Part shown: positions 6,880 through 10,290 of the stretch, one piece after another
How positions within the stretch are numbered: position 1 is the first letter of the stretch
How the letters are laid out: every line of letters begins with the position of its first letter
NCBI GenBank assembly: GCA_903873965.1
Contig: CAIQQO010000165.1
Span: 397 to 64,396 of the forward strand
Direction: 5' to 3'
DNA: 64,000 bases
Source of the DNA: an uncultured bacterium
GTDB lineage: Bacteria > Chloroflexota > Anaerolineae > J036 > Brachytrichaceae
Made by a program: the position numbers and the translations under genes
Notes under the pieces: generated by a model
Databases searched by the model: none
The model's input: the letters and a program-made list of their open reading frames with translations, nothing else
What the model was told of the DNA's origin: nothing

Positions 6880-7021
6880 TATGGTCGCGATTTGTTGGAA
6901 ACCGGTAGGAACGTGAACTTCATACCAATTCCCTACGATGACCAGCTATAAAGCATCTATCGGTCTAAAACGAATTGAACCGATCAGCTTAATTCTGGTC
7001 TTTCCGAGCAAGAGGAGCAAT

Positions 7022-7405
7022 ATGAACACAATAACCAACGCTAATCGCGCAACCGCTGCAGGTGCTGGCGTGAAAAACGTCCGGCCAGCCCGTCGCAACA
7101 GCACAACCAGCATCAACCTGATCATCACCGTGACCTCATTCATGGCCACCATGACCGGTTGGGCAGTGTTCGCCAATCATGACTACACCACATGGACAAC
7201 GCGTGAGGCGGCCCCCATTGCAGTGACAACCGACACTGTAGCCCAGGCGCTTCCAACCATTGAACCGCTGATCGCCGTGGACACGGCCACCCAGGTAGCA
7301 CAGGTATCGACGAATACCAGAACCGCAGCAACAACCATACAACAGACCACTAGCGTAGCACGCTCGGCGCCCCGCACGGTGACTACCACTCGATCGTCGC
7401 GGTAA
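7022..7405 (+). CDS. Small membrane-anchored low-complexity protein (paralog A), unknown function
   Basis: ATG preceded by agaggag. Basic N-terminus, one TM ending ATMTGWAVFAN, a T/A/V/Q/P-rich tail, then TIQQ...APRTVTTTRSSR at the C-terminus. Paralog of 8917..9309. Confidence 0.6.
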   Translation: MNTITNANRATAAGAGVKNVRPARRNSTTSINLIITVTSFMATMTGWAVFANHDYTTWTTREAAPIAVTTDTVAQALPTIEPLIAVDTATQVAQVSTNTRTAATTIQQTTSVARSAPRTVTTTRSSR

Positions 7406-7540
7406 AGAAATCCGGGTAAATCACATGCGCGGAGTTGACAGCCGACGCTGCTTCACACGTATCGCCCCCATTGGCTTAATACGGAGAAATGAATCGCGAG
7501 GAACGCCAAGAAGAGTAATGATGCCATTCCACGCTGTTAC

Positions 7541-8278
7541 ATGATGGTCTGGCAAGGAATAGAAGTCATGATGTCAAAAACAGTACCCAATTCGAAACCG
7601 ACCACCAGCATGGTTGACGAGTACCCATCGGCAGTGACGCCAGGCGCGTTCATCGCAGGTATGGGTGCTGCTGTCGCAGGCGCCCTGCTTGCCTCTGTTG
7701 TGGCGCCGGCTGTTGTCCCACAAATGGTACAGTCGATGCTGGGCGCGGAACCCAAGGCTTACTGGTACCTAACACGTGCATCGGCGCTAGTCGCCTTTCT
7801 ATTGCTCTGGATTTCAGTGGCGCTTGGATTGATGATGACCAACAAACTGGCGCGCATATGGCCTGGCGGTCCCACCGCCTTCAGTGTGCATCAACACACC
7901 AGTCTGCTCGCTTTGGGGTTTGGCGTCTTTCATGGCCTGATTCTTCTGGGCGACCAATACATCGGATACACCCTTGGCCAGGTACTTGTGCCTTTCAGCG
8001 GGGCAGCATACAAACCGTTATGGGTCGGCATGGGACAAGTAGGGATTTACCTGATGGCCGTTGTTGGTTTGAGTTTTTACGTGCGCAGACAGATCAGCCA
8101 GAAGGTGTGGCGCCTGATCCACTTCGCCAGCTTTGCCATGTTCATCCTGGCTATGGCACATGGAATCTTTAGCGGCACTGACAGCAGTGCTCTGCCTGTG
8201 CAAATCATGTACCTGGTCGCAGCTGCCAGCACGACTTTTCTAACGATCTACCGCATTCTTGCCACGCGAGTGAAATAG
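7541..8278 (+). CDS. Ferric-reductase-like (MsrQ/YedZ-type) transmembrane heme protein
   Basis: Polytopic membrane protein with conserved His in successive helices (SVHQHTSLLALGFGVFHGLIL, RLIHFASFAMFILAMAHGIF). The start could be 7541, 7544 or 7568. Confidence 0.65.
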   Translation: MMVWQGIEVMMSKTVPNSKPTTSMVDEYPSAVTPGAFIAGMGAAVAGALLASVVAPAVVPQMVQSMLGAEPKAYWYLTRASALVAFLLLWISVALGLMMTNKLARIWPGGPTAFSVHQHTSLLALGFGVFHGLILLGDQYIGYTLGQVLVPFSGAAYKPLWVGMGQVGIYLMAVVGLSFYVRRQISQKVWRLIHFASFAMFILAMAHGIFSGTDSSALPVQIMYLVAAASTTFLTIYRILATRVK

Positions 8279-8386
8279 AACGAACGTGGTATTTCCTACC
8301 AAATCCCAACTTACGGACGTTATAACGTCATTCGTAAGGTGGTGATGACTCTGTTAACCAACCCACAAAAAAACACGAGGTGATCA

Positions 8387-8914
8387 ATGAACCAGAAAAC
8401 AGCTTTGATTGTTTCCGCAGGAATTACGTCCTTTATGCTGGCCATTGGCGGTGGCGCAGCCATCGTTGCAAACCGGGCATCGGTATCGGCAGAATCCGTC
8501 GCAGTGCAGCCGGCTGCAAGCGGTGACTTAAGTGCACAGCGCGAGTCGCAGTACCAGCAACTCATTAACCAGGCGAACAGTCAGATCAAACAGGCTAACG
8601 CCGAGATAACATTACTGAAGGAGCAATTACGCCAGGCACAGTCGCCAACAACTGTCCAATTCATCCTCGCGAGCCAAGCGCAGACAATAGCAATGAATGC
8701 CGTACCGAATGCTACTGTGCTTCGCACACCGGACTTGGTGGATTACCAGGGTACACCTTCGTACGAAGTCGTGCTGGACAAAGGTACGCTGTATATCGAT
8801 GCTAAAACCGGCGCGATTCTTGCCAATGGCGCAGCAGTACAAGTCGATACACAGATTCAAGGCGAACAACGCCACACAGATAATGAATCGCACGAATCCG
8901 GCGAGGATGACTAA
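8387..8914 (+). CDS. PepSY domain-containing membrane-anchored protein
   Basis: RBS gaggtg. N-terminal TM and a helical linker. C-terminal PepSY-like segment ASQAQTIAMNAVPNATVLRTPDLVDYQGTPSYEVVLDKGTLYIDAKTGAIL. Confidence 0.7.
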   Translation: MNQKTALIVSAGITSFMLAIGGGAAIVANRASVSAESVAVQPAASGDLSAQRESQYQQLINQANSQIKQANAEITLLKEQLRQAQSPTTVQFILASQAQTIAMNAVPNATVLRTPDLVDYQGTPSYEVVLDKGTLYIDAKTGAILANGAAVQVDTQIQGEQRHTDNESHESGEDD

Positions 8915-8916
8915 AA

Positions 8917-9309
8917 ATGAATACCCCAAACACACCTAAAAAGAACCGCTCCAACACGTCAGCCGTTACGATCCTGATTACCGCGGCAAGCATTGCCGCC
9001 GCCATGACGGGTTGGGCTGTATTTGCGAACAAAGACAGCGGCGCGGATTCATCCGCTGTCGCAGTTGTAGCCGAAGTCGCGCCGGTGGAGAACACAGTCG
9101 CCCCGTCGGCAACGCTCAAACCATTGCCGACGATTGTCCCGCTGGTGGGCACTACGCCTCAAGCGACGAAACCCACCTCGGTCGCGCAAGTGCAACCCAA
9201 AGTGGCAGTGCCAACGCCGCAAGCGCAGGCTCCAACCATTCAGCAGCCAGCTGTGCGCAATGTGAACCCGGCGCCACGCCCAGTAACGCGCTCGCGTTCA
9301 TCGCGATAA
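8917..9309 (+). CDS. Small membrane-anchored low-complexity protein (paralog B), unknown function
   Basis: Starts 2 nt after the PepSY stop. TM ends AAMTGWAVFAN, followed by a P/A/V/T/Q-rich tail and TIQQ...APRPVTRSRSSR at the C-terminus. Confidence 0.6.
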   Translation: MNTPNTPKKNRSNTSAVTILITAASIAAAMTGWAVFANKDSGADSSAVAVVAEVAPVENTVAPSATLKPLPTIVPLVGTTPQATKPTSVAQVQPKVAVPTPQAQAPTIQQPAVRNVNPAPRPVTRSRSSR

Positions 9310-9327
9310 CGCAGGACAGAAATCATC

Positions 9328-10290
9328 ATGCAACAGATCGACTTTCGCGCTATGGGCTGTCAGATGATGGCCGCCGTGGACAGCGAGTCCGCAGAAGCGC
9401 GCCATGCGCTGGATAGTGTACCCATCTGGTTTGAAGAATGGGAACAAGTCTTAAGCCGGTTCCGCGCCAATAGTGAACTAAGTCAGGCCAATCGCAATAG
9501 TGGCAATTGGGTTACTGTCAGCCAAACACTATGGGATGTCTTTCAACTTGGCCGGATCGCTGCTGAAAAGAGCGATGGATTGGTAAATCCAACCATGTTG
9601 CAGGCGCTCGAAGCAGCCGGTTATGATCGCAGTTTCGAACTGGTGCAAACCTCGTTCGCAACCATCAGCCTAGGTCGATCCGTGACGGCGGATTGGCGCG
9701 ATATCGCAATCGATGCAGAAAAACGCGCGGTGAAGCTGCCGCCCGGGCTGCGAATGGACTTGGGCGGCGTGGCTAAGGGTTGGGCAGCCGACGAAGCCGC
9801 GCGTCGATTGGCCGAATTCGGGCCGGCGCTTGTGGATGCGGGCGGCGATGTGGCAGTCTGTTCCAGCGACACGGCCAACACCCGTTTCCCAATTGGCGTG
9901 GCCTCGCCCGTTCAGCCGAATGAAAACATCGACGTGGTGATGATAGCCAACGGCGGCGTCGCCACTTCAGGGCGCGACTACCGCCATTGGATTCACAACG
10001 GCAAAAAGCAGCATCACATCATCGACCCGCGCACCAGCAGACCAGCCGTGACCGACATCATGACGGCAACTGTCATCGCGCCCAACGCGCGCGAAGCCGA
10101 AGTCGCCGCCAAAGTGGCGTATATTCTCGGCAGCAGCGCGGGGCTTGCATGGATTGAATCGCAGGACGGCGTGGCCGCGATGCTCGTGCTGGAAAACAAC
10201 GACATCATGTGCAGCAGCCGCTTTATGCAGCACTCGTGGCAGGCAACCGCAGCCGAATCGTCTCATCCTCAACCACCCATAGCGCCGTAG
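9328..10290 (+). CDS. apbE: FAD:protein FMN transferase (ApbE family)
   Basis: ApbE-like blocks: MDLGGVAKGWAADEAA, LVDAGGDVAV, GGVATSGRDYRHW..HHIIDPRTSRP. Confidence 0.85.
   Translation: MQQIDFRAMGCQMMAAVDSESAEARHALDSVPIWFEEWEQVLSRFRANSELSQANRNSGNWVTVSQTLWDVFQLGRIAAEKSDGLVNPTMLQALEAAGYDRSFELVQTSFATISLGRSVTADWRDIAIDAEKRAVKLPPGLRMDLGGVAKGWAADEAARRLAEFGPALVDAGGDVAVCSSDTANTRFPIGVASPVQPNENIDVVMIANGGVATSGRDYRHWIHNGKKQHHIIDPRTSRPAVTDIMTATVIAPNAREAEVAAKVAYILGSSAGLAWIESQDGVAAMLVLENNDIMCSSRFMQHSWQATAAESSHPQPPIAP

Follow-up and report, generated by a model that had tools for sequence, protein, structure and literature searches.

A small membrane-anchored protein with an invariant Ser-Ser tail, encoded next to apbE in Chloroflexota, is a candidate acceptor of FMN

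Which protein receives the flavin in an apbE operon that encodes no recognisable acceptor? This question is raised by a locus in a 64,000-nucleotide stretch of DNA from an uncultured Anaerolineae bacterium (contig CAIQQO010000165.1 of assembly GCA_903873965.1; the whole stretch is hereafter called the window), in which five co-directional open reading frames (ORFs; 7022-10290, plus strand) stand divergent from an OmpR-type two-component system. An initial annotation, made from the sequence without database searches, had described them as an operon of ApbE, which transfers flavin mononucleotide (FMN) from flavin adenine dinucleotide (FAD) to proteins, with a ferric-reductase-like membrane protein, a PepSY protein and two small paralogous proteins, A and B; all ORFs and their order are present as claimed. 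To our knowledge, all known ApbE substrates are folded flavin-binding domains with a D-x-x-[ST]-G-A-[ST]-like motif. The five genes are the following:

7022..7405, plus strand: small protein A, a lineage-specific paralogue of B (127 aa counted from MNT, ending in ...APRTVTTTRSSR)
7568..8278, plus strand: MsrQ-like / ferric-reductase-domain membrane protein (236 aa; the longest ORF begins at 7541)
8387..8914, plus strand: transmembrane-anchored PepSY-domain protein with an acidic, His-containing C-terminal tail (PF03413)
8917..9309, plus strand: small protein B, the universal family member and candidate FMN acceptor (130 aa, ending in ...APRPVTRSRSSR)
9328..10290, plus strand: ApbE, FAD:protein FMN transferase, without signal peptide (PF02424)

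No canonical acceptor was found at this locus. The FMN_bind domain (PF04205) has no Pfam match in any of the five window proteins, and the short motif [ST]G[AS][ST] is absent from all five, in agreement with the initial annotation, which had seen no [S/T]GA[S/T]-type motif in the four partners of ApbE. The longer D..[ST]G[AS][ST] is absent from all ORFs of at least 80 aa in the window and in the related loci L001-L065, and the canonical D-x-x-[ST]-G-A-[ST] occurs in 0 of the 139 members of the family to which A and B belong. DSGAD, which is present in B and had been named as the nearest approach, was considered as a degenerate motif and rejected, as it is not conserved in B orthologues. A and B also lack the folded flavin-binding domain of canonical substrates, be it FMN_bind, NqrB/RnfD, DUF2271, DUF3570, Flavodoxin_4 or FMN_red (Pfam, NCBIfam and AlphaFold2). 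Clusters with an MsrQ-like gene normally include an FMN-binding gene (PMC8238504), and here that slot is empty.

We tentatively propose, with somewhat less than even confidence, that A and B would themselves be FMN acceptors, of a tail type, serving a haem conduit. Four points make this the most likely role of the two proteins: an invariant C-terminal Ser-Ser, strict adjacency to apbE, the absence of a canonical acceptor, and published work according to which a tail can be modified. Short terminal tags of seven residues are flavinylated by ApbE, best at the termini (PMC10722498, PMC12052999), and in FMN_red proteins the residue that receives FMN is on an unstructured extension at the C-terminus (PMC11334425).

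A and B are paralogues (BLASTP E = 8e-14, 38% identity) which share the transmembrane segment, an LPTI.PL block, TIQQ and the C-terminal APR.VT..RSSR; of the features that the initial annotation had listed, the MNT start, MTGWAVFAN, TIQQ, APR.VT and (T/S)RSSR were found again. A, B and 13 further members of their family gave zero Pfam or NCBIfam matches. Word-indexed searches returned close relatives only, and a profile built from these was used for a wider search of 1.84 billion representative proteins, which gathered 121 clusters at E ≤ 1e-3. With few exceptions these are 90-150 aa long, and the profile match extends to the C-terminus; the clusters keep both ends and the length around a low-complexity middle, as had been proposed. 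A basic N-tail is followed by a single hydrophobic helix (LITAASLAATLGGWA), an L.PLPTLVP block, a Pro/Ala/Ser/Thr- or Gly-rich linker with about 90 disordered residues, then P.LR.V and the ending P-x-P-V-[TA]-x-T-[R>G,K,Q,H]-S-S-[R/K]; an example of such a tail peptide is NPAPRPVTRSRSSR. The AlphaFold2 model of B, made with the family alignment, has one helix (residues 15-39) and is otherwise coil. Two alignments, of 72 and 80 sequences, have the two C-terminal Ser as their only invariant columns, and the ending [ST]-x-[ST]-S plus 0-4 residues is found in 132 of 139 family sequences. No other part of the family is invariant, which makes the C-terminal tail the obvious candidate for an acceptor. 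The initial annotation had favoured it too, and its invariance is in keeping with this choice; the tail does not fit the canonical motif, and its flavinylation is something that we infer.

Protein A is matched by the family hidden Markov model (HMM) at E = 1e-14. Its orthologues are confined to close relatives (L001-L005), as is the gene order A, MsrQ-like, PepSY, B, ApbE; in L006 the PepSY gene sits upstream of B. The second paralogue and the gene order of the window are peculiar to this lineage. Literature searches on the family, on TRSSR in connection with ApbE, and on Chloroflexi or Roseiflexus ApbE returned nothing relevant.

The linkage of this family to apbE was assessed from both sides. 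A genome scan anchored on ApbE gave 11 loci in metagenome-assembled genomes of Anaerolineae/Chloroflexia; a small family gene lies directly upstream of apbE in 11/11, mostly with stop/start overlap, and the gene order of these loci, PepSY, small protein, ApbE, MsrQ-like, is that of the general cassette. A metagenome scan anchored on the small protein (transmembrane region only, from an alignment of a 13-sequence subclade) gave 43 loci, 34 of which could be tested, having at least 100 nt downstream of the small gene. In 33 of these 34, apbE starts -4 to +22 nt past the small-gene stop; a PepSY gene stands upstream in about 30 of 40 loci of this set, and an MsrQ-like gene 3' of apbE in 10 of 11. 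The initial annotation had made its proposal depend on conserved homologues and on their linkage to apbE, and these clusters and loci provide both. The minimal cassette (L061, 1379-2624) holds a response regulator, a small protein (101 aa, ...ITFTRSSR) and ApbE, and is followed by an unrelated sugar ATP-binding cassette (ABC) transporter. As only these three genes are kept there, the pair of small protein and ApbE can be regarded as the core of the cassette.

The same cassette, each time with a histidine kinase and response regulator of its own, also occurs on a Thermoflexales contig, in an assembly of Roseiflexus sp. and on two other long contigs, where the flanking genes are otherwise unrelated. 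The MsrQ-like protein has 972 homologues at E ≤ 1e-5, and every organism-named one comes from Chloroflexota. The cassette is self-contained, widespread in Chloroflexota and known so far from that phylum alone: of the two groups in which the initial annotation had wanted co-occurrence with apbE to be tested, Chloroflexota and Actinobacteria, it was found in the former, and no link to Actinobacteria appeared among organism-named relatives. In the window, B and ApbE share a reading frame, with TAA and 18 nt between them (9307-9330). A readthrough or frameshift product fusing the two into a transmembrane-anchored external ApbE was considered and rejected: the window stop is TAA and the offsets at other loci fall in all three frames, which implies no conserved readthrough fusion.

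The ApbE enzyme is intact, as judged from its sequence. It matches PF02424 with E = 3e-53 (181 bits, cut-off 25.6), has PDB relatives at E = 1e-27 to 1e-16 (1vrm, 4xdt, 4ifu and 6nxi) and shares with them the aligned motifs DLGGVAKG, ATSG and HHIIDP; an exact look-up of this protein gave no entry. In 43 of 53 loci, even the longest possible apbE ORF begins only 5-10 residues ahead of the first strand ('F.AMG'), the sequence before it being taken up by the small gene. The enzyme therefore has no signal peptide, and it appears cytoplasmic. Cytosolic ApbEs are known (PMC12052999), so that the missing signal peptide is no bar to membership of the family; it does conflict with a simple extracytoplasmic scheme, a point that the initial annotation had missed.

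The HMM check that the initial annotation had suggested gave clear matches for ApbE and PepSY and a weaker one for the ferric-reductase-like protein, which PF01794 (Ferric_reduct) matches at E = 3e-5 with 24.5 bits, short of the gathering threshold of 28; for many orthologues PF01794 is on record as a precomputed assignment. The AlphaFold2 model of this MsrQ-like protein (pLDDT 83.8) has six transmembrane helices, with the haem-ligand His on helix 3 (H108/H122, H-x13-H) and helix 5 (H185/H198, H-x12-H), and all four His are invariant in 46 sequences. Its best PDB folds are SpNOX, STEAP1/2 and the NOX5 transmembrane domain, with a TM-score of about 0.5. The model thus represents a six-helix di-haem ferric reductase domain (FRD) fold. 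An extra N-terminal helix (seven helices, N-out) was considered and rejected, the model having the canonical six. Neither Pfam nor the model gives the protein a dehydrogenase domain of its own. H198 opens a conserved loop, H198-G-x-x-S-G-T-D-S-S, in which G203 is invariant and T204 and D205 are conserved in at least 90%. The standard FRD orientation, which is backed by positive loops and C-terminus, supports a position of this loop on the outer face beside the outer haem.

Other redox proteins neighbour the MsrQ-like gene in some lineages. In Roseiflexus sp. (L063, 8919-9416) the gene immediately downstream of it encodes a Haem_bd (PF14376) protein that is anchored in the membrane and carries the haem c motif CADCH; it may serve that lineage as an external redox partner. 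In Thermoflexales (L064, 8913-10211; L065, 1164-2462) the MsrQ-like gene is followed by that of a 432-aa Pyr_redox_2 flavoprotein resembling type-II NADH dehydrogenase, which might donate electrons to the module or the quinone pool.

The PepSY protein (PF03413, E = 4e-7) has a soluble domain behind a single N-terminal anchor. In 43 distinct tails, its last 25 residues hold on average 8 Asp/Glu and 3.3 His, a composition that suggests cation binding; examples are HEHESEHEEH...DD and HDDDHDDDHDD (8840-8914 in the window, with equivalents in L007-L060). The charge of this tail is opposite to that of the basic A/B tail. Poly-Gly runs precede the C-terminal tails of both the PepSY and the small protein in L007, L009, L010, L012-L015 and L020-L022, and Pro/Ala/Thr-rich linkers are found in both proteins in other genomes; with linker types matching within genomes, the two linkers seem to co-vary in composition. 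One divergent family member (P0061) has upstream, in the place of PepSY (L066, 332-952), a gene with a weak match to Metal_resist (PF13801). The initial annotation had read the operon as an extracytoplasmic electron-transfer or iron-reduction module. Transmembrane electron transfer is reasonable in view of the di-haem FRD fold and the PepSY tail, but iron reduction specifically is unsupported.

On which side of the membrane does the tail of A and B lie? The net charge flanking the transmembrane helix is +3.3 on the N-terminal side versus -0.6 on the C-terminal side, and the N-flank exceeds the C-flank in 124 of 129 sequences. The positive-inside rule therefore predicts an N-in/C-out arrangement, with the tail outside the cell, in these 124 members. 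In one locus (L018, 2212-3153; P0033) a 313-aa ORF runs from the PepSY protein into an entire small protein, with its basic N-tail and transmembrane helix. If real, this fusion would put the tail and the PepSY domain on opposite sides of the membrane; we did not use it as a clue to topology, as it comes from a single contig and is probably an assembly or indel artefact.

We infer the following scheme, which covers the flavinylation of Ser and its timing ahead of export, the place where the flavin docks, the way the electrons run and what finally accepts them. ApbE, made in the cytoplasm where FAD is available, would transfer FMN by a phosphoester bond to one of the two invariant C-terminal Ser. 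The tail protein consists of a transmembrane anchor and about 90 disordered residues with no flavin-binding domain, and the flavin would hence sit on a flexible leash of about 90 residues and act in trans with the di-haem protein. It would dock most likely at the outer loop H198-G-x-x-S-G-T-D-S-S of the MsrQ-like protein, close to the outer haem, from where electrons would go to an acceptor outside; this acceptor could be a metal ion offered by the PepSY tail, rich in His, Asp and Glu. The distance between a cytoplasmic enzyme and an external tail could be bridged in two ways. The still-unfolded tail may be modified in the cytoplasm and then translocated; modification before export would explain why the cassette has neither an FAD exporter nor a secreted ApbE. 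Alternatively, the tail may stay inside and supply an inner-face flavin, as bound by STEAP and NOX enzymes. Tat export of a cofactor-loaded tail was considered and rejected, as an RR pair occurs in the N-region of only 20 of 129 members, in a context that is not Tat-like.

Several observations weigh against the tail as acceptor. T-x-S-S, formed by the Ser pair and a conserved Thr ahead of it, aligns with [S/T]-G-[A/S]-[S/T] only at the two hydroxyl positions. The Asp at -6 is missing, with Val or Ile instead; the Gly expected at -2 is replaced by Arg in 69% of sequences, and the Ala expected at -1 by Ser. In favour of the tail, 11 of 132 tail sequences read TGSS or SGSS and fit the short form [ST]G[AS][ST]. 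A cytoplasmic ApbE and a tail predicted outside make a topology conflict, and we know of no precedent for the export of a pre-flavinylated tail, which the scheme assumes. The linkage has a sole exception, a small gene (L055, 1106-1842) with no apbE in the 266 nt that follow it. Adjacency is equally expected for a partner that is not a substrate. Finally, the acceptor search spanned the window and the related loci, and a canonical acceptor may possibly be encoded elsewhere in these genomes. As to the motif, substitution of the Asp by Ala had a minor effect in a substrate of a cytoplasmic ApbE, and Gly to Ala or Ala to Val left about 50% flavinylation (PMC12052999). The small gene of L055 has a GC-rich, terminator-like hairpin on its 3' side.

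The operon is also tied to a regulatory system, whose elements in the window are:

4763..6196, minus strand: sensor histidine kinase of the divergent two-component system (HisKA and HATPase_c domains)
6193..6879, minus strand: OmpR-type response regulator, divergent (ORF; Response_reg and Trans_reg_C in orthologues)
6895..6911, plus strand: tandem direct repeat TTGGAA-N5-TAGGAA, probable response-regulator box (intergenic region between response regulator and operon, 11-nt register)

The domains of the kinase (HisKA/HATPase_c) and of the regulator (Response_reg/Trans_reg_C) are those of an OmpR-type system. The response regulator is upstream and divergent in most related loci; L001, L063, L067 and L068 are among those where a kinase-regulator pair adjoins the cassette. 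A direct repeat, TTGGAA-N5-TTGGAA with at most one mismatch, was found in the intergenic region between regulator and operon in 12 of 17 loci, against a mean of 0.01 in shuffled sequences. First noticed in L063 (5495) and L008 (6762), it also stands at L011 6885, L042 3502, L047 535, L060 337, L061 1315 and L067 8050. This repeat is probably bound by the cognate OmpR-type regulator, and it links the two-component system with the operon. At the other end, the last 68 nt of apbE (10223-10290) overlap a convergent ABC-F ATPase gene (10223-11887, minus strand), and the same 3' overlap is present in a close relative.

The best surviving alternative is that A and B are accessory partners, acting as a scaffold or assembly factor for the MsrQ-like and PepSY proteins or as a co-sensor of the histidine kinase, while the acceptor of ApbE (FMN_bind, NqrB/C, RnfD/G, DUF2271 and so on) is encoded elsewhere or ApbE is mainly an FAD pyrophosphatase. 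We regard this as possible, if on the doubtful side. The missing canonical motif and the opposite predicted locations of enzyme and tail speak for it as they speak against modification of the tail, and the two-component system is associated with the cassette as constantly as ApbE is. PepSY proteins often accompany two-component systems. The acceptor search covered 64 kb of this genome and the related loci, and with that span an accessory role stays a serious rival. A scaffold, however, leaves unexplained why the sole invariant residues should be two C-terminal hydroxyl residues, why the pair survives in the minimal cassette (L061) without the MsrQ-like and PepSY proteins, and why the spacing to apbE is so tight and often overlapping. 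Orphan apbE contexts have, moreover, repeatedly proved to encode new substrates (Méheust et al., PMC8238504).

A second alternative keeps A and B flavinylated but the tail in the cytoplasm, where it would give the FRD protein its inner-face flavin so that a cytoplasmic reductase could feed the haems. SpNOX, STEAP and NOX5, the closest solved folds of the MsrQ-like protein, use a flavin at the cytoplasmic face. This arrangement would also suit a cytoplasmic ApbE, the absence of a dehydrogenase domain in the MsrQ-like protein and the basic character of the last 20 or so residues of the tail. We nevertheless consider it improbable: the basic N-tail beside a single transmembrane helix predicts the opposite orientation in nearly all members, no second hydrophobic segment returns the chain across the membrane (AlphaFold2), and the linker resembles that of the PepSY protein of the same genomes, which is taken as external from its N-terminal anchor.

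Another cassette protein might instead be the acceptor, either through the outer loop S-G-T-D-S-S of the MsrQ-like protein, with its invariant G203 and highly conserved T204/D205 beside the outer-haem His, or through D-A-K-T-G-A-I in the PepSY protein, which resembles D-x-x-T-G-A-[ST]. This appears very unlikely, since the hydroxyl directly after Gly in S-G-T-D is not invariant, the acceptor position in PepSY is Ile or Val as in the general PepSY consensus, within a segment unconserved across loci, and the small protein and ApbE persist in several loci without PepSY and in L061 without either protein. Lastly, the idea that A and B are no genes at all but spurious ORFs of low-complexity intergenic DNA, or what is left of a split transmembrane-anchored ApbE, as their low-complexity middle, their lack of a database family and the frame shared by B and ApbE in the window might suggest, is effectively refuted, both ends and the length being conserved over the 121 clusters, the stop codon keeping its position while the frame relative to apbE differs among loci, an AGGAG (Shine-Dalgarno-like) sequence preceding the ATG of A, and both genes being called by independent gene callers.

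If A and B are the acceptors, a signal-less ApbE acting on a disordered tail would add a class of substrates, widen the recognised motif and make the place of flavinylation a question of its own. In its strongest form, the proposal would make A and B a new class of ApbE substrate: domain-less, membrane-tethered and disordered, flavinylated at T-x-S-S(R) before export and working as a leash in trans. We consider this form conceivable and hold it with low confidence; a tail that is flavinylated before export would already approach such a class. The main surveys covered only secreted ApbE or FMN_bind proteins and left orphan apbE genes in about 4% of genomes. A natural minimal tail acceptor would be useful for flavin-tagging, and the cassette is present in Roseiflexus, a genus with cultured members.

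Among described systems, the PepSY-like transmembrane reductases (PF03929 / PF16357, FoxB/VciB type) share little more than a name with this cassette. Their multi-helix, haem-binding PepSY_TM domain is not present here, and because the domain found is only the soluble PepSY the cassette is not of this type. The extracellular electron transfer system of Listeria (PMC9973259) is alike in being of monoderm type, with a membrane-tethered flavinylated carrier outside the cell (PplA). In contrast to the small proteins, PplA has folded FMN_bind domains, and its transferase, the external lipoprotein FmnB, depends on an energy-coupling factor (ECF) transporter that exports FAD; the cassette encodes no such transporter. 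The MsrQ-like flavinylation systems (Méheust et al. 2021, PMC8238504), like which the cassette would work, are closer in composition, with a PF01794-type six-helix di-haem protein clustered with apbE and a proposed transmembrane electron transfer to a flavinylated partner. Here, by comparison, there is no FMN_bind, NAD domain or ApbE signal peptide, the host belongs to Chloroflexota, and a domain-less tail protein would fill the acceptor slot. Those systems were defined by a PF01794 gene clustered with a signal-peptide-bearing ApbE or an FMN_bind gene, and others were discarded (PMC8238504); having neither FMN_bind nor an ApbE signal peptide, the cassette falls outside this operational definition.

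As regards the enzyme and its target, the soluble fumarate reductase of Klebsiella pneumoniae (PMC12052999) offers a parallel, being reportedly modified by a signal-less cytoplasmic ApbE with relaxed dependence on the motif Asp; the substrate there is a soluble enzyme with an FMN_bind domain, whereas here it would be a membrane-anchored tail. The Flavin-tag (Tong et al. 2021; PMC12052999, PMC10722498) indicates that a short terminal peptide suffices for FMN attachment by ApbE, and the A/B tail would be its counterpart in nature; the tag is an engineered D-x-x-[ST]-G-A-[ST] used with Vibrio cholerae ApbE, while the A/B tail reads P-V-T-x-T-R-S-S-R. The closest mechanistic precedent, by analogy, is the C-terminal extension of FMN_red (Huang et al. 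2024, PMC11334425), where the acceptor Ser/Thr is on a disordered C-terminal extension and the cognate apbE is adjacent. That extension has a canonical-like motif and folds in cis onto the flavin pocket of its own protein; A and B have no folded domain, so that any pocket for their flavin must come in trans.

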